This document shows positions 13,548-47,335 of a stretch of DNA of 64,000 nt, in pieces. This DNA comes from Octopus vulgaris. Taxonomy: Eukaryota. Under the pieces are notes generated by a model. It saw nothing but the letters and a program-made list of their open reading frames with translations. It ran no database searches and had not been told where the DNA came from. A program made the position numbers and the translations under genes. The number at the start of each line of letters is the position of its first letter. Position 1 is the stretch's first letter. Location of the stretch: assembly GCA_951406725.2 (NCBI GenBank), contig OX597822.1:19592001-19656000 (forward strand), given 5' to 3'.

Positions 13548-15747
13548 ATCATCATCATCATCATCAACATCGTTTAACGTCCGTTCTCCATGCTAGCATG
13601 GGTTGGACAGTTCGACCGGGGATCTGGGTTGCCAGAAGGCTGCACCAGGCTCCGGTCTTCTCTGGCAATGTTTCTACAGCTGGATGCCCTTCCTAACGCC
13701 AACCACTCCGTGAGTGTAGTGGGTGCTTTTTACGTGCCACCTGCACTGGTGCCAGGTGAGGCTGGCATCGACCACAGTCGGATTGGTGCTTTTTACATGC
13801 CACCGACACGGAAGCCAGTCGAGGTGGCGCTGGCATCGTCCATGATTCAGATAGTGCTTTTTACGTATCTCCAGTCCAGGGGTCCTGGCATCTGCCGGGT
13901 GCCAGTCATAGGATTGGTTCAATTTCGATTCCGATTTCACTTGTCCCAACAGGTCTTCGCAAGCAAAGGGGGGTTGGCATAGGTGCCTGTCGTTGGATGA
14001 GGTTCGATATCGACTTCGCTTGCCTCAACAGGTCTTTGTGTCCAAGGGAGGAAAGGCATGCATAAGTGGGCTGGACTCACTTGTCCTGCCTGGTCTTCTC
14101 ACGCACAGCATATTTCCAAAGGTCTTGGTCGCTGGTCATTTCTTCAGTGAGACCTAAAGTTCGAAGGTCGTGCTTCACCACCTCGTCCCAGGTTTTCCTG
14201 GGTCTACCTCTTCCACAGGTTCCCTCAACTGCTAGGGATTGACACTTTTTCACACACCTATCTTCATACATTCTCGCCACATGACCATACCAGCGCAATC
14301 GTCTCTCTTGCACACCACAACTGATGCTTCTTAGGTCCAACATTTCTCTCAGGGTACTAACGCTCTGTCGAGTATGCACACTGACATTACACATCCATCG
14401 GAGCATACTGGCTTCATTCCTCGCGAGCTTACGCATGTCCTCAGCAGTCACGGCCCATGTTTCATTGCCATGTAGCATGGCTGTTCGTACACATGCATCA
14501 TACAGTCTGCCTTTTATTCTGAGCGAGAGGCCTTTAGTCACCAGCAGAGGTAAGAGCTCCCTAAACTTTGCCCAGGCTATTCTTACTCTAGCAGTTACAC
14601 TTTCAGCACACCCACCCCCACTACTGACTTGGTCACCTAGATAACGGAAGCTATCAACTACTTCTAGTTTTTCCCCCTGGAAAGTGACGGAAGTTGTTTT
14701 CTGCAGATTTTCAGAGGTTAATGCTCCCGAGCATCTGCCACATACAAAAACTATCTTCCCAGTTAGCCTTCCTTTTACATTGCTGCACCTCTTATGTGTC
14801 CATAGCTTACACTGGGTACATCTTATAGAGTTTCTACCTACACCTTTTTTACAGATCGAGCAGGGCCATCTTTCTGAAGACATTTGTGGATTGTCTACCT
14901 TCCTACTTATTAGGACTTTGGTTTTAGCTAGGTTGACTCTAAGGCCCCTCGATTCTAAACCCTCCTTCCACACCTGGAACTTCTCCTCCAGTTCTGATAG
15001 TGACTCAGCAATTAGAGCAAGGTCGTCAGCATATAGGAGCTCCCAGGGGCAACCTGTCTTGAATTCCTCCGTAATTGCCTGGAGGACTATGATAAATAGG
15101 AGGGGGATGAGTACTGAACCCTGGTGGACCCCAACCTCTACTTTGAATTCTTCTGTGTACATGTTGCTAACCCTAACCTTACTTACAGCATCCCTGTACA
15201 TGGCTTGCACAGCCCTCACCAGCCATTCATCTATCCCTAGTTTCCTCATTGACCACCAGATAAGGGATCGGGGGACCCTGTCAAAGGCTTTCTCCATGTC
15301 AACGAAAGCCAGGTACAGGGGCTTATCTTTGGCTAGGTATTTCTCCTGCAGCTGTCTCACCAGAAATATGGCATCAGTGGTGCTTTTCCCTAGCATGAAA
15401 CCAAACTGCATTTCGTCCAAGTTGACTCTCTCCCTAATCAGTTGGGCTATGACCCTCTCTGTAACCTTCATCACCTGATCCAACAGCTTGATACCTCTGT
15501 AATTATTTGTATCTAGGGCGTCTCCTTTACCTTTGTAGCAGTTGACTTGTATGCTGCTACACCAGTCATTGGGTATGACTCCTTCGTGTATCACCTGGTT
15601 AATTATACGGGTGACTAGGTTATAGCCGACACTGCCAGATATTTTGAGCATCTCTGCAGTAATTCCTGATGGGCCTGGGGCTTTCCCTGTCTTCATGCTT
15701 CTAATTGCTTTAACTACCAAAGAATTGTCAACTCGGATGGCTGGTCC
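13548..15747 (-). mobile_element. RTE LINE family A, 5'-truncated, uninterrupted 547-aa RT ORF
   Basis: ORF 14077-15720 with KAPGPSG, NYRGIKLL, DMEKAFD, GVHQGS, LYADD; 3' UTR and (GAT)n tail. Confidence 0.95.
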
Positions 15748-15812: not shown

Positions 15813-16165
15813 AAATATATATATTTCACAAGCAGGCTGTTCTTCCGATCAAATTAAGTGAAACCCTCATCAACGTACCTTGATTGATTGGTTGGTTGAT
15901 TGGCTGGTTGGTTGGTTGGTTGGCTGGTTGATTGATTGAGTGATTGATTGATAGATAGATAGATACATAGATAGATTTCTTTATTGGCCATGCAGGGCTG
16001 AACATAGAAGGGACAAAATACAAAATAGAGCCTTTTTTGAAACATTCACTAGACAAAACTTCCCTCTCTACTCTCACCTTCCTCTTCAGTGGGACCAAGC
16101 CCGGAACTATGTGGTTTGTAAGCAAGCTACTTACCACACAGCCACTCCTATATATATATATATTA

Positions 16166-16703
16166 TATATAGGGTATTAAATTTTTACAAATTTACTACC
16201 AGTGGCCTAGCATGCATAAAAAGTCAGTAGATAACATTATTCAATATAAAATAGTGTACATTTAAACACAAAGGGATATTACCTATAACGGGCAATTTCT
16301 ACATCCTAGGAGATAGTCAAAATGACCGAAGACCACAAAACAATTTAAGCAATTTCAAAGGGAATGAAAAATAAAAACTTTTACCTTGTTTTTACGGCTA
16401 TACCTATAGGTTTCAGATTTTTTTAGTAAATAAAATAAAATAATTTAATTTACCAGGCAAATCCTCTTCAGTAACCGAGCCATCTAAGACTAACCTATAA
16501 TTATGAGACTGATAGCACATGTCTCATCTCTATACATTATAATTTTTTCAAAATCCACTATGCAAGCGTAGTTTCAGTCGGCAGAAAATGAAGAATGCCG
16601 AAACGAACTTTGAAAAGCTAATATCGATACTGAGATATCTATATAGGGTATTAAATTGTAGAAATTGCCCGTTATAGGTAATTTCTCTTTGTGTTTAAAT
16701 GTA
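16166..16703 (-). mobile_element. Non-autonomous Penelope-like element with hammerhead motif
   Basis: 16257-16303 is inverted at about 16657-16703; terminal motif ATACCCTATA next to (TA)n; contains a hammerhead. Confidence 0.7.
16395..16477 (-). ncRNA. Type I hammerhead ribozyme motif
   Basis: CGGUUA-CUGAAGA-GGAUU-[40 nt]-AAUCU-GAAAC-CUAUAG-GUA-UAGCCG; 6-bp stem I, palindromic stem III. Confidence 0.8.
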
Positions 16704-17716
16704 TTTACATATGTAAAACATGTATTTTATTGTGGCAAGTGGAGAAGGTTAAGTGTCTTAGGGCTGTATTCATGAGTGATTGCATGTAGGGGCCTGAATT
16801 GGATGCTAGAATTGGTGGTGCTGGCACAATATTGTGCCAACTTTAGCATTCAGTATGCAGCAGAGGAGAAGTTGGTAAAAAAGTTAAACTTGCTATCTTC
16901 AGTTTTGTTTTTGTGTCTCTTCTCACCTATGGTCATGAATATTGGGTAATAGTTGAAAGAGTACAATCACAATTACTAACAGCTGAAATGAGGTCTCTGG
17001 TCTAATGTTACTTGACAGGGTAGTAACTGAATGGTTAGGGTTAGGGTAACCAGCTTGTGTAAATAATGAGTTCTACTTGAATGGTGGATAGCTAGTGTAA
17101 ACAATGGGTGGTAGTTGAATTGGGGGTCATCATCATTTAATGTCCATTTTCCATGCTGACATGAGTAGGATGGTTGACGGAAATCAACAAGCTGGATGCC
17201 TTTCCTAATGCCAACTACTTTACATAGGCTATTGGATGCTTATTTCATGATACTGATACTAGGGAGAGGGAAAGAGAAGCCTCCTTAATCCAGTGGGGTT
17301 GTAGTAGAGGAGGAGGTGGTTTTATACCAGGTGTTGAGAGGGTAAATTATGATAGAGTGACAGGCACATGCATCTTGCTTCAGACGAAATAAATGGTTAC
17401 CTTTCATTGCATATGGTTGGGTTAGGAGTACTAGGAAAGAAGACAATGATGGCGAGTTGCTAGTGTAAATAATGTGTAATATGTGAATAGTGGACAGCTA
17501 GTGTAAATAATGGATACACAACATATATAACAGGACTTGGTGCAGAATGACAAGAAGGCAGAAGATGAGAAAAGAAGCCAAAATGTCCATGATATAGTTT
17601 TTGGAACTTTAAAAGTGGATTTCATGAAATAATTAACTTTTCTACATCCAATGTAAAGGAGCAAAGGTAATACTTAAAATTCACTCAACCAATCTATTGA
17701 TTTTTATTTTCTTCAG

Positions 17717-23460: not shown

Positions 23461-23691
23461 CCAAAAGTTAATAAAGTGGAGTGGCTGTCTATGCTATATA
23501 CAACAACATTACATTAGACAAATGATGAGTTTGTGTGTAAACATACCCAGGTACATGCATACACATAACATCCATATGCATGTATGTGTTTGTGTGTGCA
23601 TACATCATACATACATACATACATACATACATACACACATACACACATAAACACACACACACACACATACACACACACACACACACACACA

Positions 23692-26466
23692 AATTGAGAT
23701 AGGGGTTGTAAATGCAACCCTCCATGGGATAATGTATATCTAATATACTGCTAGTGAAGTACCCAACAAAGTTAATACATAAGTGTTAATGATTGCGATG
23801 CAATCAATTCATTTACTGTATTATATGGGCAAAGGTAAAATGATTTACCACAAATTACTAATACAAGATAAGAAAATGGAGAAATACATCTAAATCAAAT
23901 ATCAATTACCAGATAATACTCATGTCTCATTTTTCCAATATTAGCCTTTTATGGTAGGTCAATATATAGATATAAATGAGACATTTACAAAAATATCATA
24001 AGGCCTCTTCGGAGATTATGTAATATCACACGTCCCTCTCACACACACAATCACCAAGATACACACAAGAACACGCATACAAGTACATGCGAATGTCCGC
24101 AAGCACACGTTGATGTACACGCACAAACTCCGGTGCAGCGCCACCCGAGCCCACGCCTGTGCCACAGAAATCGCACAACCCCCAACAAAACCCCCCCAAA
24201 AAACCCACCTTATATGCTCATCGAGATAAACAACTTATAGTAATTATAGACTCTCACATATTACATATTGGTATAGCAAAAACTCAAACTAGTGCCCTAA
24301 GATATGATGTGCATATACATCTTACACCTATAAAAGACTCTGTGGGGTTCCGAATATCATGCATATATCAGGATAACTATATATTTTTGTATGGGTTTTT
24401 TTTTTTTACGGTTGGTTTGTTGATGGTTGTGCGATTTCTGCGGCACAGGCGTGGGCTCGGGTGGCGCTGCACCGGAGTTTGTGTGCCAGCGTATGCGTGC
24501 GCGTCTGTGCATGTACATCAACGTGTGTACTCTCGCGCGCTGTGCTTGTGGACATTCGCGTGTACTTGTATGCGTGTTCTTGTGTGTATCTTGGTGATCG
24601 TGTGTGCGAGAGGGACGTGTGAGGGTGTGCCCGGCCATGAACTCGCGTGTCCGTGCGGGGGCGTGCATGCACATGTATGTGCATGTGGGTGCATTCCGGC
24701 GTATCCACTTATACTTACTATATTAGGTTTATCTTTGTGCCCTCCTTAATTTGTATTCCATTTTATTTATCTATCTATCTATACATGGATATATATATAT
24801 ATATTCATATTTATTTATTTAATTATTTATTTTTGTTTATTTGGCACTTACTAATCTATAATTAATTTAATTTATAATTAATAAACTTATTCTAAATTAA
24901 CAGTAACTTCTGTAGGTGTGTGAAAATGTGTATGTATACGTATGTATGTTTTTGTACATATAGGTATGATCGTGGGTGGATGTACAGATGTATGTTTTTA
25001 TTACACATATGAGCACGCAGGTGCGTACTTGGATATGTATATATGTATATGCGAATATTTATTCTTGGGTGGATATAAATATAGATTTTATTTGTACGTA
25101 TGAGTGCGTAGATATATATTTAAATATATATATATATATATATGTGTGCGAAAGTTCCCTGACACAGTATAGGAAAGTGTATTAATATTTATGCGTATAT
25201 GCGGATGTGCGTGTGAGTGTGTGTGTTAGTGTGAGACACTGCTGCCAGTACTGATATGTCTATAAGCCATGCGATGACAGACATGCACTCTGCAATTTAG
25301 TGAATGTGTAGAGATGTGTCGGGGTGTATTCATGTGTGTGTGAGTTTCTGTGTGGATGTATGGGTTTAGGGTTAGATGTGGATGTGTATGTTTTGCTTGT
25401 GCGGGATGGTGGAGGTCAGGCGGCTCTAAATTGACCAACCGCAAGGAAGATAATGATAATTTTAAATTCAAATCCAATAGTGTATTTATGTTATAAGGAA
25501 AATTACTAACTGGAACCCGGACATACATATATACCACTCTGGATCCTAATGTAAGCGTTATTAATAATATTATGAATGATAATAATGGTAACATTAATGG
25601 TATTGACAACGATAATGATGCTAACTTTAATGACACTTTAGAAATTAGTATGAAGTAATATAATGTACTATTGACTATGTATATTTGCATCTCGGTACTA
25701 ATTTGTGTATGTTTATTATCACAATATTAAGTCGAAAAACTGAGACATTGAATGTAGAACACATATATATGTTTACTAATTTATATTATTTATTTATATT
25801 ATTATGTATATGTATATTTTTATATGTATAAGAGTGTGAGTATATGCACTCATATCCCTCTCTCTCTTTCGGAGAGGCACAAGCACCTACACGCACATAT
25901 ACACACACGGCAGTTACTTCCACCTACCGAATTCAATCACAAAGCTCCGGTCGGCTTGGGGCTATAGTGGAAGACACCTACCCAAAGTGCCACGCAGTGG
26001 GACTGAACCCGAAACCATGTAGCTAGGAAGCAAGCTCTCTAACCACACAGCCATATATGTATATGTTGTATTATGGGTATGCACCCACACACATGTGGGT
26101 ATATATGTAGACTGATTTATATTACATAATCTCCGAAGAGGCCTTATGATATTTTTGTAAATGTCTCATTTATATCTATATATTGACCTACCATAAAAGG
26201 CTAATATTGGTAAAATGAAACATACTTATCTACATGGCCGAAACAGCTGTAAGATGTAATCTATACTTATATTTATATTTACTTATATTTATATTCTCTT
26301 TTATATATATTCTACTTATTATACAACATTACTCTTTTATGTACACTTTTTTATGTACATTCCTTTATGTACACTGATTTGTTCTGCTTTTTATATTTAA
26401 CCCTACAGTCTCTTATGTGGTGGTTTAATAAAGTATGTGATTGAGTATTATCTGGTAATTGATATT
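23692..26466 (+). mobile_element. Composite non-autonomous Penelope-like element with inverted terminal copy
   Basis: 23920-24025 is the reverse complement of 26119-26223; 24026-24210 is the inverse of about 24390-24625; end homologous to 8519-8720; cut at 26466 by an RTE insertion. Confidence 0.65.
26129..26255 (+). ncRNA. Type I hammerhead motif, U4C core variant
   Basis: AUCU-CCGAAGA-GGCC-[92 nt]-GGCC-GAAAC-AGCU-GUA-AGAU; stem I extendable through a bulge (AUUAC/GUAAU). Confidence 0.65.
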
Positions 26467-27619: not shown

Positions 27620-27640
27620 TATGTCTCCATTTTCTTATCT

Positions 27641-27695
<55 letters not shown>

Positions 27696-27724
27696 TCACA
27701 CACACACACTGTCTTCTCTTTTAG

Positions 27725-28005
27725 AAATCGAAGTAATTCTGCACGCAGTTCCCGATTTGAACAGTCTTCCTCTTGTGAAAGTCTCAACTGTATGACTCTA
27801 CGGAATCGGTCTTCTTCTCGAGAGCGAAGTAGTTCGCGTGAGCGTCCGACACTACGTAGAAAACAATCTAATTCCAAAGAAAGAAAATGTTCCAGAGATG
27901 GAGTTTACTCTTGTAGCCATGACAACAATATGAATTCTTCCAGAAACAGCGCAAATTCTACTGGATCTCATAAGAATTACAGAAGTCGTACTCCTTCACC
28001 ATACA
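27725..28005 (+). CDS. CCDC61: CCDC61 exon (R/S-rich, NRSNSAR..RSRTPSPY)
   Basis: cttttag acceptor, GTGAGT donor, open frame, phases 2/1 fit. Confidence 0.88.
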
Positions 28006-29312
28006 GTGAGTTTTGAATTTAAAACACTTCTTTGCCTTGATCTGATTGGCTGAGTTGATAAAGTATCAGCCAATCAACCACAACGATTTGTATCCAGTTT
28101 ACTTGTGTCACATTGTACCTTTTGCATATGGAGACACTTAATCCTTTTACTACTGTAATTCTGTTTAAATATCTTGTCTTTGTTTGAACAAATTTTGAAA
28201 CTAATGAAAAACTTAGTAAAATAATTTTGCTATTATTAAGCTGGTGTTTAGAACATAAATAACATGAAATATTAATGGATTGTTTTTAATTTAAATGACT
28301 TAAAAACAGAAAATTTGTATCATAGCCCCAGGGATGGTCTCAGGCAAGTTGAGTCTGAATATCTCAGTCCCTGTGGGAAACATAGATTCCATAGGGATAT
28401 TCAGTTCATTTCTATCAGTAGTGCACTGGTGGTATTGGGGGAGGGGAGAGTCATGTGAAGATTATTGGTGTAGACCCTTCTAGGGTGTCAGTGGCGGGTG
28501 CTATAGTCGCTTGGTGTTCAGAATTGAAATCTCTCCTCTTTTGTGATTTTGAATGGAACTGCCTGCCTTGACTGTGTTACATAGTGACCAAATTCACACA
28601 GTATCGTTCCCCAAAACATATCTGTAACTACATATCTGTGTGGTAAGAAGCTTGCTTCCCAACCTTGGGCAAGTGTCTTCTACTATAGCCTCAGGCCAAC
28701 CAAAGCCTTATGAGTGGATTTGGTTGACAGAAGCTGAAAGAAGCCTGTTGTGTGTATATATATGTATATGTGTGTGTGTGTGTGTCTATGTTTTTACACC
28801 CCCGCCAGAGTTCGGCAACCACTGTTGGTATGTTTATGTCGCCATACAGTACCAGGCTTAAAAAAGTGAGCACTGAGGTCAATTTGTTTAACTAAAAAAT
28901 TCCCAAGGTGATACCTCAGCGTGGACACAGTCTAATGACTGAAACAAGTAACTTATATATAGGAATTTCCAGACAAAATTTAATTTGTTTATGAATGCCT
29001 GTTTTCAAACTGATGAATGTTCTGAAACAGTTATTGCTGATAATATGAAGCAATGAAATTTCAAGCACCAAGAAACTTTTCTTTTAGTATTTTTACACAC
29101 CCTTGTTCAACTCATTGACTGTTGCTGGTTTTGTACCATAAACTTTACCTTTTAAGTATTTCCATAAAAAAAAAGCAACAAAAAACTAGTGGTGTAATGT
29201 GGTGTGTTTATAATGTGCATGGTTTATTGATGAAAGGGGACTTGGGACAAGTCTTCAAATCCTCTTATATATAATGTGTATGTGTGCCTGTATATATATC
29301 ATCATCATTTAA

Positions 29313-32128: not shown

Positions 32129-35100
32129 TCATCATCCTCATCATCGTTTAACATCCGTACTCCATGCTAGCATGGGTTGGACGGTTCGACCAGGGATCTG
32201 GGAAGCCAGAAGGCTGCACCAGGCTCCAGTCTTATCTGACAATGTTTCTACAGCTGGATGCCCTTCCTAATGCCAACCACTCCGTGAGTGTAGTGGGTGC
32301 TTTTTATGTGCCACCCGCACAGGTGCCAGGCGAGACTGGCAACGGCCATGGTCGGATTGGTGCATTTTACGTGCCACCGGCACGGAAGCCAGTCGAGGCG
32401 GCGCTGGCATCAGCCACGATTCGGATAGTGCTTTTTACGTACTACCAGTCCAGGGGTCCTGGCATCTGCCGGGTGCCAGTCATAGGATTGGTTCGATTCC
32501 GATTTCGATTTCACTTGCCCCAACATGTCTTCGCAAGCAGAGGGGGTTGGCATGGGTGCCTGTCGTCGGATGAGGTTCGATATCAACTTCACTTGCCTCA
32601 ACAGGTCTCTGTGTCCAAGGGAGGAAAGGCATGCATAAGTGGGCTGGGCTCACTTGTCCTGCCTGGTCTTCTCACGTACAGCATATTTCCAAAGGTCTCG
32701 GTCGCTGGTCATTTCCTCAGTGAGGCCTAAAGTTCGAAGGTCGTGCTTCACCACCTCGTCCCAGGTTTTCCTGGGTCTACCTCTTCCACGGGTTCCCTCA
32801 ACTGCTAGGGATTGGCACTTTTTCACACAACCTATCTTCATCCATTCTCGCCACATGACCATACCAGCGCAATCGTCTTTCTTGCACACCACAACTGATG
32901 CTTCTTAGGTACAACATTTCTCTCAAGGTACTAACATTCTGTCGAGTATGTACACTGACATTACACATCCATCGGAGCATACTGGCTTCATTCCTCGCGA
33001 GCTTACGCATATCTTCAGCAGTCACGGCCCATGTTTCACTGCCATGTAGCATGGCTGTTCGTACACATGCATCATACAGTCTGCCTTTTACTCTGAGCGA
33101 GAGACCTTTAGTCACCAGCAGAGGTAAGAGCTCCCTAAACTTTGCCCAGGCTATTCTTATTCTAGCAGTTACACTTTCAACGCACCCACCCCCACTACTG
33201 ACTTGGTCACCTAGATAACGGAAGCTATCAACTACTTCTAGTTTTTCCCCCTGGAAAGTGATGGAAGTTGTTTTCTGCAGATTTTCGGAGGTTAATGCTC
33301 CCGAGCATCTGCCACATACAAAAACTATCTTCCCAGTTAGCCTACCTTTGACATTGCTGCACCTCTTATGTGTCCATAGCTTACACTGGGTACATCTTAT
33401 AGAGTTTCTACCTACACTTTTTCTACAGATCGAGCAGGGCCATCTTCCTGAAGACATTTGTGGATTGGCTACCTTTGTACTTATTAGTACTTTGGTTTTA
33501 GCTAGGTTGACTCTAAGGCCCCTCGATTCTAAACCCTCCTTCCACACCTGGAACTTCTCTTCCAGTTCTGATAGTGACTCAGCAATTAGAGCAAGGTCGT
33601 CAGCATAGAGGAGCTCCCAGGGGCAACCTGTCTTGAATTCCTCCGTAATTGCCTGGAGGACTATGATAAATAGGAGGGGGCTGAGTACTGAACCCTGGTG
33701 GACCCCAACCTCTACTTTGAATTCTTCTGTGTACATGTTGCCAACCCTAACCTTACTTACGGCATCTCTGTACATGGCTTGCATAGCCCTCACTAGCCAT
33801 TCATCTATCCCTAGTTTCCTCATTGACCACCAGACAAGGGATCGGGGGACCCTGTCAAAGGCTTTCTCCATGTCAACGAAAGCCAGGTACAGGGGCTTAT
33901 CTTTGGCTAGGTATTTCTCCTGCAGCTGCCTTACCAGGAATATAGCATCAGTGGTACTTTTCCCTGGCACAAACCCAAACTGCATCTCATCTGAACTAAC
34001 TCTCTCTCTAATTAGTTGGGCTATGACCCTCTCCGTAACCTTCATTACCTGATCCAACAGCTTGATACCTCTGTAATTATGTGTATCTAGGGCGTCACCT
34101 TTACCTTTGTAGCAGTTGACTAGTATGCTGCTACACCAGTCATTGGGTATGACTCCTTCGTGTATCACCTGGTTGACTATACGGGTGACTAGGTTATGGT
34201 CGACACTGCCAGATATTTTGAGCATCTCTGCAGTAATTCCTGATGGGCCTGGGGATTTCCCTGTCTTCATGCTTCTAATTGCTTTAACTACCAAAGAATT
34301 GTCAACTCGGATGGCTGGTCCCTCTGTTGGGTTGACATTCGGCAGACTCTCTTTATCCCATTCATTTTCTTTATTCAGCAACCTTTCATAGTGGCATCTC
34401 CAAACCTCTCTGTTTGCATCCTCATTTAGCGCAAGTGAACCATCATCCATGTGGACACATTTCTCTCCTACCACATCACGATTCTCTCTCACACACTGTC
34501 TTGCAACACGAAATACCTCAAGTCTTTCATCCTCACGGCTCAGAACATTGGCAAATTTTTTCTTATCCGCTTCCCCTCTGGCTAAATAAACCTGTCTCCT
34601 AGCTTCCCTTCTGGCTGTCTGATACAATTCCCTGCTACCACCGTTCTTCCAGTCCTTCCAAGCCTGTCTCTTTTGTCTAATAGCCCTGTCAACCACAGTG
34701 TTCCACCACCACGTTACTCTGGGTCGAGATGGTACTTTGCTCCATCTACAGATCTGGTCAGTGGCTGTCAGCAGATTGTCCCGTAGAAATCTCCAGTTGT
34801 CTTCCACATTAAGTGAAGCTATATCCCCTTCTATTTCGTCAAAGGCTTCGAGTAGTATGTCTCTAAATCTCTGTCCATTTGCAGGATCTTTTAGCTTCCA
34901 GACCCTTCTCCTCCAAGCAGGTCTTCTTCTGGGCAACCATTTAGCTCTGATCCTGAAGTCGCTAACTACTAATCTATGTTGAGGAGTACATTCTTCGCCT
35001 GGAAAGGTTTTGGCATTTATAAGCAGCCCTCTTTCCCTTTTTCTGGCAAGGATGTAGTCAATCTGGCTAGTGTGTCTGCAAGAACGGTAGGTGACTAGGT

Positions 35101-35164
35101 GAGAGGTGGGTTTCCTGAAGTTGGTATTGCAGACCATAAGGTCATTTGCATCACAGAACTCCAG
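32129..35164 (-). mobile_element. RTE LINE family A, longest copy (partial APE, RT, PHD, C-terminus)
   Basis: 796-aa ORF with the end of the APE domain (SQIDYIL, PQHRLVV) and RT motifs; one frameshift near 32830; 5' truncation at (CA)n. Confidence 0.96.
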
Positions 35165-35338
35165 ATATACACACACACACACACACACACACTTTTAAAA
35201 AAGCTGAAAAAATTTTCACAAGCTGTTACTCAGAGTTTCACATTACTGTTTATTGGACAGTTGTGATCATACTAAATTACTTTACCTTTGAGTACCTGTT
35301 TTGTTCCACCTTGTTTATGTGCTTACATGTATGTGTGT

Positions 35339-35394: not shown

Positions 35395-36704
35395 TAGTGG
35401 GCATGGTTCCACTAATCTGCTAACAGCTAATTAGCGAAGCTAGCTCTTTGTTTTGCAGTTTAGCATTTTCGCTAACTTTGGAAACTGTTAGCGGACCAAT
35501 TAGCTTCTGCTAAATTTAGTTCTGCTAACTTTAAGTCTGCTAACAAAATTTATACATTTGTTCCTGTTTGTTGTTGGTGTGTCTTGAAGAGTCCATCAAG
35601 CACATTATTGACTGACTACATGTTCATGTAACAAGATGTGATTGGTTGATGCAGCTGCAGCTAGCTGAACAGCATTGTGTGTGTGTGTGGAGGCGCAATG
35701 GCCCAGTGGTAAGGTCAGCGGATCTGCGGTCGGAGGATCGCGGTTTTAATTCCCAGACCGGGCGTTGTGTGTGCCTATTGAGCGAAAACACCTAAAGCTC
35801 CATGAGGCTCCGGCAGGGGGTGGTGGCGACCTCTGTTGTACTCTTTCGTTCCAACTTTCTCTCACTCTTTCCTCCTGTTTCTTGTCCTCGACTTCCTACG
35901 CAACTGCTGAGCCTGGATGCGCATTCATCCATCCGTCGATGTTCTCGGTGTCGGGGTTGACCTGCTTTCTCTTCTGCGGGATCTTACGAATAGCAAAGGA
36001 CCACGTTTCGGACTTCTCCCACTAATGGGACGAAGACCGCTTTGCTCAACAAACAAACAAAGCAGCATTGTGTAATTCTGCAGTGTTGAGTTGTGTTCAC
36101 TTACAATGTTGTCACATTACAGACAGTCTTACAGTGTCAGTGACATACAGTGTATGTTATTAGCTTATCAAGTTATTGTTTATCGTTATGGAAGATGAAG
36201 ATGTTTTTGTTTGGCCTGAGGATGAAGGGCCTGTTGAGGAGTCTGCAATGGCTATGGATGAGGCAGCAGTCATTCAGATTGAGAGACAGGAGTCTCAGAA
36301 CCTGTGGTCCAACTTGGAGGACTACTTTGTTTGTTGTTACATCAAGGGATAAGAGGAACACCAAAATACTGTACTTCCGGTGCATCATATGCCAGCCCAA
36401 GGAGACAAGTGGCAAGCCACTACAATTTGAAGTTGCATGTCAAGAGGAAACACCCAGCGCATGCCGTCCAGTTTGAGGAAAGGAGTTAGGCTGGCTCTTT
36501 CCATGGGAAACACAGGCAATCTTCTTGTAGCAGTGCCAGTAGCCAGTATCTAGGCTGGTGTGCTAAACAAAAAAGTACACCAGCCTAGCATTGGCAAGAT
36601 GTTTGCCCAAACTGCTGGCACTGGCATCCATCGGTCTGTGATGGACCGAAGGATTGTAGACCTGTTTGTCAACAACATGCTACTGCTGCATGTAGTGGAG
36701 TTCC
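35392..36704 (+). mobile_element. hAT transposon 5' part with BED finger remnant
   Basis: Terminus CAGTAGTGGGCA with gctaa-rich subterminal repeats; FRCIICQPK..YNLKLHVKRKH; VDLFVNNMLLLHVVE; interrupted by a SINE and a Penelope-like element. Confidence 0.65.
35688..36062 (+). mobile_element. tRNA-derived SINE, same head as 10016-10277, different tail ending (AAAC)n
   Basis: TSD cagcattgtgt at 35670-35680 and 36063-36073. Confidence 0.8.
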
Positions 36705-38480
36705 TTGGCAAGTCTTATAAGTGTTGGTAGCTACAGCAAAGTAAAGAAAGACCCAACTCTGAAAACAGAGAGGAAGTTGTCACAGATCTTGATCAAGAAT
36801 AGGGAACACTTTACACCAATAAAGTACAAACAACTAACTCAACACTACAGTAAACTACCACACATGTACAGTCTCCCTAAAATTCACAAAGTTGGTATTG
36901 CATTAAGACCTATAGTGAGCTGTAGAGGTTCAGCATGTCATCAACTAAGCTGCTTCCTTGTGGAAATAATCAGTCCATTAGCAGGAAAGTCAACATCATA
37001 TGTGAAGAATTCCACCCATTTCACAGAATTGACCAAGGATAACCCCCATTGAATTCAACGAGATGGTGAGTCTAGATGTGATAAGTCTGTTCACCAAAGT
37101 CCCGACTGGTGAAGCACTATCGGTGATTCAAGAAAAACTAGTGACAGACACCTATCTAAAAGAATGCACTGGTATACCAATAAGAAACTTGATGGAAATG
37201 TTGACCTTCTGTGTAGAAACTACCTACTTCAGTATGGACACTGATATATATCGACAAGAAGAGGGTTTAGCTATGGGTTCACCATTGTCACCAATAATAG
37301 CCAATATATACATGGAATTCTTTAAGAATTTGGCTTTAGGATCAACACCACTAAAACCAATCCTGTGGCTGCAATATGTTGATGACACCTTCATACTCTG
37401 GCCCCACCAGGAAGATGTCCAAGTGCTGTTAGATCATGTGAACTCAATAAAGCCATCCATACAGTTCACAATGGAAAAGGAAAAAGGCAATCAGCTAGCA
37501 TTCCTGGATGTATTAATAACACGCACCAAGTATGGATTCAGGACATCCATATACTGCTAGCTGACCTTCACTTCAATTCCCACCATCTGTACAGTGTAAA
37601 GAGAGGAATTGTTCAGTGCCTAAAACATTGAGCAAAGAATATAAACAGCGATCGTGATACCCACCATGAAGAAATTATCAAGCTCAGTAACAATCTATTA
37701 AGCAACAACTACCCCAAAACATACTATCTACTCGAATTATGTAGAAAAGAGAGGATGAAACCAATAAACTCTCTACAGTTTGTTTACCCTGTGTGAAAGG
37801 TCTCTCCGAAAAGATACAAAAGATATGCGGCCCATATGACAGGACAGTATTCAAGAGTAATACAACACTTCGCAAATATCTCCTTCAGGTAAAACCACCA
37901 ATAGAAGAGAATATGACCAAAAACTGTACTCCATCCCAAGGCAGCTGTGGTAGGTTATGCAAAGGTGAAACATGCCACCCTATCAAAATATGGGTAGAGG
38001 AACATCGCAAAGCTGTGACATGAGGAGATATTGATAAATCGGGTATAGCTGATCATGTATGGAAAAATGGAGATCATCTCCCCCTGTGGGATGAAGTTAA
38101 AATAATGGACAGAGAGCACCACTGGAAAATATGAAAACTAAAAGAAGCAGCACATATGCTAGGACACAACAACCTCCTAAGGAGAGCGAGTGCACATATG
38201 AAAAGCATATAGGAACCGGTATTAAGGAAGGATAGGAAAATATTTGATTTATAAGCCCTAAAAATTCACTCCATAATTGCTCATGGGCATATGGCATAGT
38301 GGTTAAGAGCGTGGGCTACTAACCCCAAGATTCCAAGTTCGATTCCAGGCAGTGACTTGAGATGACGACGACGAAGAAGAAGGCTGGAGGGTATATCAGC
38401 CGATACGTTGTGTTAACAACAAACAAGATGAGGACAAATATTCGTCAAATGTGAATAATGGTAATAATAATAATAATAAT
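36705..38480 (+). mobile_element. Penelope-like element, decayed RT plus GIY-YIG
   Basis: YSLPKIHK, LRPIVS, SLDVISLFTKVP, GLAMGSPLSP, YVDD, FLDVLI; CGRLCKGET..EHRK endonuclease remnant; several stops/frameshifts. Confidence 0.92.
38284..38358 (+). mobile_element. Short tRNA-like SINE nested in the Penelope 3' region
   Basis: tggcatagtggttaaga A-box, stem gggctactaacccc, gttcgattcc B-box; no clean acceptor stem. Confidence 0.55.
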
Positions 38481-46127: not shown

Positions 46128-46141
46128 TATGTATATATATA

Positions 46142-47302
46142 CAGGGGTTGGACAAAATAATGGAAACACCCAGCATCATAGCATCAAAATTTTGAAATAT
46201 CTATAAAACTGTCAAAAGCTTGTTTATTTTTATGTGTTTTGATTTATTATTAGTGTTACTTAATATGTTTTGCTAAGATTGCTGTTTCTTTTTAGATATC
46301 ATCAGAAAAAGGTAATTAAAATTCATTAAAATGACAGATTTATCAGACTTTCAAAGAGGTCAAATTGTTGGTGCTTGTATGACAAAGTAATGACAGCCTT
46401 TGAGAAAGAGGGAAAAAACCTCCTTGTTGAAACAAAACTCTGGAAGAAAGCAAAAACTTTCAGATAGGGACCGTCGGACTCTTATGCAAATTGTTAGAAA
46501 GGATCACAAAGGTACAGCTCCCAAAATTACTACAGAGCTTAATGACCACCTCGAGAACCCAGTTCGCTGGGAGTTGCACAAAGCCGGATTTCATGAGATG
46601 GCTGCAATCAAAAAACCACTACTTTCAAAAACAAACGCTGCAAAGCATTCAGAGTGGAGTAAAAACCTATAGAATTGGTCCCTAGAGCAGTGGGAGAATG
46701 TTATTTTCTCAGACAAGTCATCCATTACCCTATTTATGATCACTGGCTGAGTATATGTGTGAAGACAGTCAAAAGAAGCATTTGACCCAGACTGCCTTCT
46801 TCCAACTGTTAATCATGGAGGAGGATCTGTGATGATCAGGTGGGCTATATCTTGGAAATTCACTGGCCCAATGGTTTTCCTTCATGGCAGAATTAATAGT
46901 CAAGACTATTTAAGCATTTTATCTGATCAAATCCATCCTATGGTTGTGGAACAGTTTCCGGAAGGAAACACAATCTTTCAGGATGATAATGCACCAATTC
47001 ACATAGCTAAAGTTGTTACTGAATGGCACGAGGACCATTCTAGTGGAGTTGAACATCTTATCTGGTCACCACAGTCCCCAAATCTCAATAATATTGAACA
47101 TTTATGGTGCATTTTAGTAAAAGAACTGGAGACAGTTTTAGCTGAAGAATGGACAAAAATTCCTTTGGGACAATTTAAACTTTGTACTAGTCTATACCTC
47201 ATAGAATGCAAGCTGGAATTACTGCCAAACGCAGTCCTACCCCATATTAAAATAAATTTGTTTGAAATTTTAAGGTGTTTCCATTATTTTGTCCAATCAC
47301 TG
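46142..47302 (+). mobile_element. Tc1-like transposon with both TIRs, decayed transposase
   Basis: TIRs caggggttggacaaaataatggaaacacc / ggtgtttccattattttgtccaatcactg; FSD, FQDDNAPIH, SPNLNNIEHLW; TA on the left flank. Confidence 0.92.
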
Positions 47303-47335
47303 TGTATATATATGTATATATATATATATATATAT

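Follow-up and report, generated by a model that had tools for sequence, protein, structure and literature searches.

At 16395..16477, on the minus strand of the window (the 64,000-nt stretch of Octopus vulgaris DNA analyzed here), lies a short sequence with the signature of a hammerhead ribozyme, which raises the questions of whether it is a genuine ribozyme motif, what kind of element carries it and whether this copy could act. The surroundings are eukaryotic and repeat rich, with 74 tandem-repeat rows, SINE-like families, LINE reverse transcriptases (RTs) and a Tc1 remnant; no host protein family was recognized in 149 of the 158 frames of at least 68 aa in the window. The LINE RTs lie at 7389-8555 (-), 14077-15720 (-) and 32798-35188 (-), the last two having a PHD/C1-like finger that scores under the Pfam cut-off and agreeing at 90-96% in the 300-nt blocks listed, and the Tc1/mariner remnant at 46132-47312 has 39-bp terminal inverted repeats and matches to HTH and DDE_3. 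The evidence set out below makes it probable that the motif is the type I hammerhead of a solo 474-nt copy of non-LTR retrozyme-like character, most likely moved by a Penelope-like element (PLE). The features are collected in Table 1.

Table 1. Positions of the hammerhead, the 474-nt unit that carries it, and related features of the window
Feature	Position	Strand	Basis or remark
474-nt non-coding unit (31% GC; permuted, cut site in mid-unit)	16183..16656	-	
5' copy of 18-nt terminal overlap	16640..16657	-	
3' copy of 18-nt terminal overlap (start of second unit)	16166..16183	-	
Inverted 5' piece, 47 bp	16657..16703	+	96% identical to internal 16257-16303
TA microsatellite at 3' end	16149..16172	.	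then SINE-like repeat, 16149-16087
Stem I, 5' strand CGGUUA	16472..16477	-	sequence, pairing, fold
Catalytic core C3-A9, CUGAAGA	16465..16471	-	equals consensus core of PMC3088659 (excerpts)
Stem II arm, 50 nt (6-bp base helix with G10.1.U11.1, internal loop, 12-bp AU-rich hairpin)	16415..16464	-	
Core G12-A15.1, GAAA	16411..16414	-	sequence
Palindromic stem III, ACCUAUAGGU (10 nt, perfect palindrome)	16402..16411	-	
Predicted cleavage site after A17 (between GUA and U)	16400..16401	-	prediction
Stem I, 3' strand UAGCCG (UAACCG in relatives)	16395..16400	-	
Distal stem I (16490-16485 with 16383-16388)	16383..16490	-	A/C mismatch at 16485 breaks pairing here
Upstream half-palindrome UUAUAGGUU, able to capture stem III 5' strand	16492..16500	-	folding
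Downstream segment pairing with core strand and both stem I strands in whole unit (ribozyme-off fold)	16311..16335	-	prediction
Second-family element	8520-9046	-	intact core CUGAUGA at 8987, palindrome ACAGCUGU, 4-bp stem I
Second-family copy	26133-26251	+	core CCGAAGA (U4 change), 100-nt stem II arm
Second-family copy at 24012	23689-24622	-	core CCGAAGA; GAAA/palindrome (3') half lost
Decayed Penelope/Poseidon-type RT	about 36700-38410 (RT about 36.7-38.3 kb)	+	RVT_1 E 2.8e-11

Judged by its sequence, the motif is a real and complete type I hammerhead, for which cleavage is predicted. Every core position is satisfied (C3 U4 G5 A6 N7 G8 A9, G12 A13 A14 A15.1, U16.1 and H17), and the three helices are present, helix I being open-ended and paired beside the core. 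The original prediction of a hammerhead with a complete core and three helices on this strand thus holds, as do its 6-bp stem I (CGGUUA/UAGCCG, one of the six pairs being U.G), its stem III inside the perfect palindrome at 16411-16402 and its cut between 16401 and 16400, with U16.1 at 16402 and A17 at 16401. It was also right that stem II opens with a G.U pair, but that helix has 6 bp (GGAUUU 16464-16459/AAAUCU 16420-16415) and not the 5 proposed. Beyond it runs a 38-nt extension, so that 50 nt in all separate the core strands; neither this extension nor the setting in a 474-nt unit formed part of the earlier description. The long arm leaves no canonical loop 2, and the internal loop after the first 6 bp might stand in for it. 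Splice-like AG/GT sites are present around the motif.

A chance match in AT-rich DNA would have to be set aside before anything else is concluded. With a hammerhead descriptor, drawn up after the motif had been seen, 4-bp stems I and II and a palindromic stem III gave two matches in the window and none in 400 dinucleotide shuffles; with both stems of at least 6 bp, the motif at 16395..16477 was the single match in the window, in keeping with its having been called the best-formed copy. The minimum-energy structure of the 83-nt stretch has the hammerhead shape (-16.2 kcal/mol), although its z-score is -2.16 and 6 of 200 shuffles were as good. Rfam likewise returned no match at the gathering score anywhere in the window and, at E up to 10 over 16100-16800, three unrelated matches and no hammerhead; this miss is presumably caused by the long stem II, and a match to an Rfam model is a route of detection rather than a defining trait of the type I hammerhead. 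Against these two points in favor of chance stand the shuffles and the existence of related motifs with varied palindromes and compensatory pairs, described below, and we consider coincidence extremely improbable. A pattern scan of metagenomes yielded two loci that matched the 20-22-nt pattern alone, with no surrounding hammerhead, and these were taken as chance.

How readily this copy would adopt the active shape appears to depend on what surrounds it. The folding probabilities given here are secondary-structure predictions at 37 °C that leave out tertiary contacts, Mg2+ and folding kinetics. The stem II helix has a predicted probability of 0.92; stem I reaches 0.81-0.83 in trimmed forms and 0.19 with the natural flanks 16380-16491, where a shifted register takes 0.72, and placing the three letters of the relatives (see below) into 16380-16491 raises stem I from 0.19 to 0.91. 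For the construct 16380-16500 stem I drops to 0.00, with UAUAGGU at 16499-16493 capturing stem III (0.97, and still 0.93 with the relatives' letters), and stem I is predicted to be abolished in the dimer of this construct as well; a negative cleavage result with 16380-16500 would therefore not refute the ribozyme. In the whole unit, stem I is again at 0.00, its strands and the core strand being predicted to pair with 16335-16311; as a circle the unit folds at -100.7 kcal/mol (z -2.5 vs 60 shuffles).

The upstream half-palindrome was considered as a natural switch and rejected, as it prevails solely in RNAs with a start near 16500 and is sequestered by other pairing in RNAs from 16560 on (0.00). 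A further copy of its 7-mer lies at 16287-16281, and two extra 7-mers arose in 17 of 5000 shuffles in a post hoc test. As for the downstream segment, the relatives' letters at 16485 and 16314 turn two of the off-fold pairs into wobbles and the common shorter relatives skip 16273-16347, so that selection on a downstream lock is not supported. The claim that this copy is the best candidate for an active ribozyme in the window therefore stands as regards its form and is weakened otherwise, because its relatives pair better at three stem positions and its natural flanks leave stem I mostly unformed. We lean toward expecting that a trimmed transcript of the 16395..16477 copy would cleave in Mg2+.

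Modeling also favors the action as a dimer that had been proposed, in part. The palindrome ACCUAUAGGU forms a weak hairpin alone (-0.4 kcal/mol) and a 10-bp intermolecular duplex at -13.8, and two copies of 16395-16477 co-fold into a double hammerhead at -45.4 kcal/mol vs -32.4 kcal/mol for two monomers; the advantage of 13 kcal/mol is found for pairs of 16395-16477 or of 16390-16480. Dimer action is thus supported by the co-folds, but it is not obligatory: the hammerheads of invertebrate retrozymes are described as having a 2-bp helix III closed by a tetraloop, single repeats from coral and mussel self-cleaved, and an axolotl 2-bp form was 22% cleaved as a monomer and better as a dimer (excerpts of PMC7229834). 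No partner of the same family as the 16395..16477 copy is found in the window, and this solo copy would need a partner in trans.

Relatives of the element occur in public sequence data. Some of its words were present in 20 of the 24 public runs listed, and four of these (X1, X5, X6 and X13; all contigs) were compared with it at 80% likeness; that X13 is RNA is a guess, and it is not counted as evidence of expression. Depth at 16556-16585 is 62 (X1), 776 (X5) and 3907 (X6), and at 16346-16375 it is 1735, 23248 and 90293; these values over the unit are a sign of many copies and not a copy number. The junction between the inverted piece and its flank is covered by one contig in each of X1, X5 and X6, with depths of 13.7, 8.3 and 22.1, far below those over the unit, and 0, 1 and 0 differences from the window. 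Depth peaks in the 3' part of the unit, and the blocks 16196-16285 and 16346-16405 recur in a relative that is shorter, lacking about 16273-16347, and much more abundant. Just upstream of 16405 the depth falls; this was discarded as evidence, given that reads were cut by the tool at 16418-16456 and that sister families diverge in this place.

Three stem positions, among the 40 of 200 variants listed, each give the relatives a Watson-Crick pair that this copy lacks; changes that weaken the fold may sit outside those 40. At 16398 (stem I) the relatives have U-A vs U.G here (19.8 of 25.4 depth in X1, 394.9 of 402.4 in X5 and 1188 of 1273 in X6), and at 16485 (distal stem I) they have G-C vs A/C here (25.8 of 31.7, 210.6 of 210.6 and 637.2 of 637.2). 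The third, 16415, gives C11.1 and hence G10.1-C11.1 (19.9 of 19.9 in X5, 32.1 of 109.9 in X6 and the entire depth in X13, with no cover in X1). As ~70% of X6 depth is without C, the motif at 8875 has G.U and loose ends of a sister form have U, U11.1 may be a tolerated variant and not decay. The 10.1-11.1 pair is the most conserved after 15.1-16.1, yet a U-U start of stem II has been reported (excerpts of PMC3088659), so the G10.1.U11.1 wobble need not be fatal; excerpts of PMC544870 and PMC2837043 hold no measured effect of it.

The sister form was seen in the loose contig ends behind 16390 (22 contigs in X5 and 23 in X6, agreement ~0.7), which on reverse complementation by eye show U at 11.1 and the palindrome ACCUAGGU of 8 nt. 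The same place is thus filled by ACCUAUAGGU, ACAGCUGU and ACCUAGGU, three distinct palindromes, which argues that self-complementarity is what is kept in stem III. In many contigs the match breaks off no more than 10 nt from the predicted cut (16390-16397; loose ends in X1, X5 and X6), and record 11 of X13 switches strand at 16397. Sister families explain part of these ends near the cut; copies starting at the cut site are a possibility.

The element that carries the hammerhead consists of an inverted 5' piece, one 474-nt unit and the first 18 nt of a second (1.04 units), with no ORF of 120 aa within the unit. The 18-nt direct repeat is exact at a spacing of 474 nt. It was rejected as a target-site duplication, other copies running through it into the start of the unit: four records of head-to-tail junctions, which on the + strand lead back from the start of the unit to its end, were found in three of the four runs, three of the records being in the DNA-type runs X1 and X6, and the letters between (27, 10, 17 and 58) compare with 23, 9, 15 and 55 predicted by a 474-nt unit. 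The overlap therefore belongs to the unit. One joint in X6 reads from 16630 to 16166. No array with two complete hammerheads was found; the longest junction record (record 10 of X13, 560 nt) holds one. The copy thus combines a partial tandem, an inverted 5' copy and a microsatellite or AT-rich target, and insertions of Penelope-like elements are described with partial tandems, an inverted 5'-truncated copy and a bias to microsatellites or (TA)n (10.1101/2021.04.23.441226, excerpts).

A second hammerhead family in the window follows the same plan. Its element at 8520-9046 has a 105-nt stem II arm with a G.U first pair, a 37-bp inverted 5' piece (95%) and TA at both ends; the palindrome ACAGCUGU occurs at 8875 and at 26240, and stem I differs between these two motifs by two compensatory pairs. 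The copy at 24012 is preceded by a long inverted repeat (24026-24203/24402-24622). A piece resembling the inverted arm of this family lies at 27625-27645, next to a TA tract, and a 131-aa frame without a Pfam match at 27690-28200.

The two best hammerheads are thus each flanked by inverted repeats, of 47 bp (96%) and of 37 bp (95%), and with Tc1-type transposase remnants in the window the element could be taken for a MITE, a DNA transposon derivative, with a hammerhead lying by coincidence between 47-bp terminal inverted repeats. The repeats are not both terminal, however: the partner arm is internal, with family sequence continuing ~90 nt beyond it (~170 nt in the second family). The strand-switch points moreover vary among copies (16231/16386 in X6; near 16397 in X13), and head-to-tail junctions exist. 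The MITE reading is largely refuted, and we rate it as very improbable.

The same insertion footprint, with its inverted 5' piece and TA end, would also be left by the dead 3' tail (pseudo-LTR) of a coding Penelope-like element, made anew by 5' truncation and with no independent copying. A PLE remnant does lie in the window, the 3' part of the unit has the greatest depth, and PLE pLTRs are reported to include variants with a palindromic helix III (PMC4209133, excerpts). What speaks against such a tail is that the 3' end of the unit runs directly into its own 5' start, with no ORF between, both here and in the four junction records, and that the hammerhead has canonical stem lengths and a distal stem I rather than the minimal form. 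At the element there is no RT plus GIY-YIG ORF between pseudo-LTRs, as an autonomous PLE would have. We consider this origin unlikely, in preference for a retrozyme-like unit copied in its own right.

The remnant at 36.7-38.3 kb contains GLAMGSPLSP and YVDD, which we take to be motifs of a PLE-type RT, and a decayed RT of this type implies that PLEs exist in this genome. A scan for PLE RT motifs gave its sole match at 37273 and none near the hammerhead element. An endonuclease remnant is likely there by eye; Pfam detected no GIY-YIG in the remnant. A tRNA-like stretch (about 38287-38357) is followed by a worn minimal-hammerhead-like hairpin (about 38372-38410). The remnant shares no detectable sequence with the 474-nt element, and no PLE protein gene tied to the 474-nt family was found, which counts against the retrozyme-like reading. 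The RT at 8555-7389, which follows the 8875 hammerhead, was rejected as a PLE partner, being presumably an RTE-type LINE by its C-terminal motifs.

From the literature we infer how a retrozyme-like unit of this kind could have spread, with transcription, cleavage, circles and a PLE as carrier as its conditional steps. Head-to-tail copies would be transcribed; two hammerheads, joined by their palindromes, would form a double hammerhead and cleave behind GUA; and the unit-length RNA would be ligated to a circle or stay as an uncut multimer. An RtcB-type ligase circularises retrozyme RNA (PMC7229834, excerpts). A PLE protein would then copy the RNA at AT/TA-rich DNA from an internal start, as PLE RT does at AT-rich DNA (PMC11167929, excerpts), leaving a copy that is permuted, a little longer than one unit and equipped with an inverted 5' piece. 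This copy spans the cut site and exceeds one unit, so its template would have been a circle or an uncut multimer. Retrozymes have been proposed as non-autonomous PLE derivatives (10.64898/2026.07.22.740005). Several reports count against a simple role for cleavage: hammerhead mutants of the anole PLE were unaffected in insertion in vitro, with no reads ending at the cut site, and the anole ribozyme needed protein (PMC11167929, excerpts); eight of nine Xenopus dimer elements did not cleave (10.64898/2026.07.22.740005); and PLE hammerheads cleave poorly in vitro (PMC4209133, excerpts).

Could the host have recruited the ribozyme to cut an intron or long non-coding RNA at this locus? The core is intact and the insertion junction is common to three runs with three organism labels. 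This copy is nonetheless weaker than its relatives at three stem positions, an off-fold is predicted in its context, and no host exon was recognised in the 149 + 15 frames scanned, a scan that would miss short exons. Recruitment of this kind is highly improbable. The copy is isolated and partly worn, and a role for it in the living animal is very doubtful.

Among known systems, the element most resembles the non-LTR retrozymes of metazoans (coral, mussel and axolotl; excerpts of PMC7229834, and 10.64898/2026.07.22.740005), with which it shares a non-coding low-GC unit of a few hundred bases, one type I hammerhead with a 6-bp helix I and a short palindromic helix III, head-to-tail junctions, dispersed solo monomers and PLEs in the same genome. 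This likeness is at the level of sequence; two whole hammerheads were found in none of the junction records, and expression, circles and cleavage are predictions. It differs in its stem II arm of 50 nt (100-105 in the second family) vs their 4-bp helix and short loop. At 474 nt the unit exceeds the ranges of 150-450 bp and 170-400 nt given in excerpts of PMC7229834 and falls inside the 51-972 bp of 10.64898/2026.07.22.740005. A self-blocking fold is predicted here, whereas the same excerpts of PMC7229834 ascribe one, among animals, to some mussel circles alone, plus plant retrozymes and viroids.

With the hammerheads of PLE pseudo-LTRs (PMC4209133; anole Poseidon, PMC11167929; both as excerpts) it has in common the type I form, a palindromic helix III for dimers, a larger helix II and the inverted 5' piece, partial tandem and AT/TA-rich end. 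Unlike them, it has no attached ORF, its helix III is a full 10-nt palindrome and not absent or minimal, no bulged base lies between A9 and G10.1, and this copy has G10.1.U11.1. The satellite hammerheads of newt, axolotl and Dolichopoda crickets (excerpts of PMC7229834 and PMC2837043) are likewise repeat-borne and of type I, with a double-hammerhead model and many worn copies, but they form long arrays, whereas this is a dispersed solo copy with PLE-type ends. A cephalopod record exists in the giant squid, with 235 Rfam type I hammerhead matches (PMC6962438, excerpts). Judged from literature listings on hammerheads in octopus and cephalopods and on retrozymes in molluscs, no paper describes the 474-nt family, and the terms ribozyme, hammerhead and retrozyme are absent from the main text of the 2026 Octopus vulgaris repeat annotation (PMC13282606). 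The family or its long-stem variants may be on record in supplements or in repeat libraries such as Repbase.

Hammerhead motifs like this one number in the thousands in animals that have Penelope-like elements; a single copy matters little, and the family has some value. Within one invertebrate element it unites head-to-tail units of the retrozyme type with an insertion footprint of the Penelope type, and it thereby bears on the proposal that PLEs carry retrozymes, which according to its authors has so far been tested in vertebrates only (10.64898/2026.07.22.740005). The long stem II suggests that model-based counts of hammerheads miss whole families, and the flanks decide whether a test transcript reaches the active shape. 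A wider and speculative reading, which we think unlikely as a whole, is that this genome holds a very large and so far unreported group of retrozymes driven by PLEs. Their 50-105-nt stem II arms would hide them from Rfam and the usual descriptors, their family-specific palindromes of 8-10 nt would be pairing codes through which like would cut only like, and built-in complementary segments would hold the monomer or circle inactive. Should the accumulated contig ends and the one strand switch at 16390-16397 reflect copies starting at the cut, the genome itself would record that hammerhead cleavage defines the template of the PLE RT, a result not obtained with the anole element in vitro.
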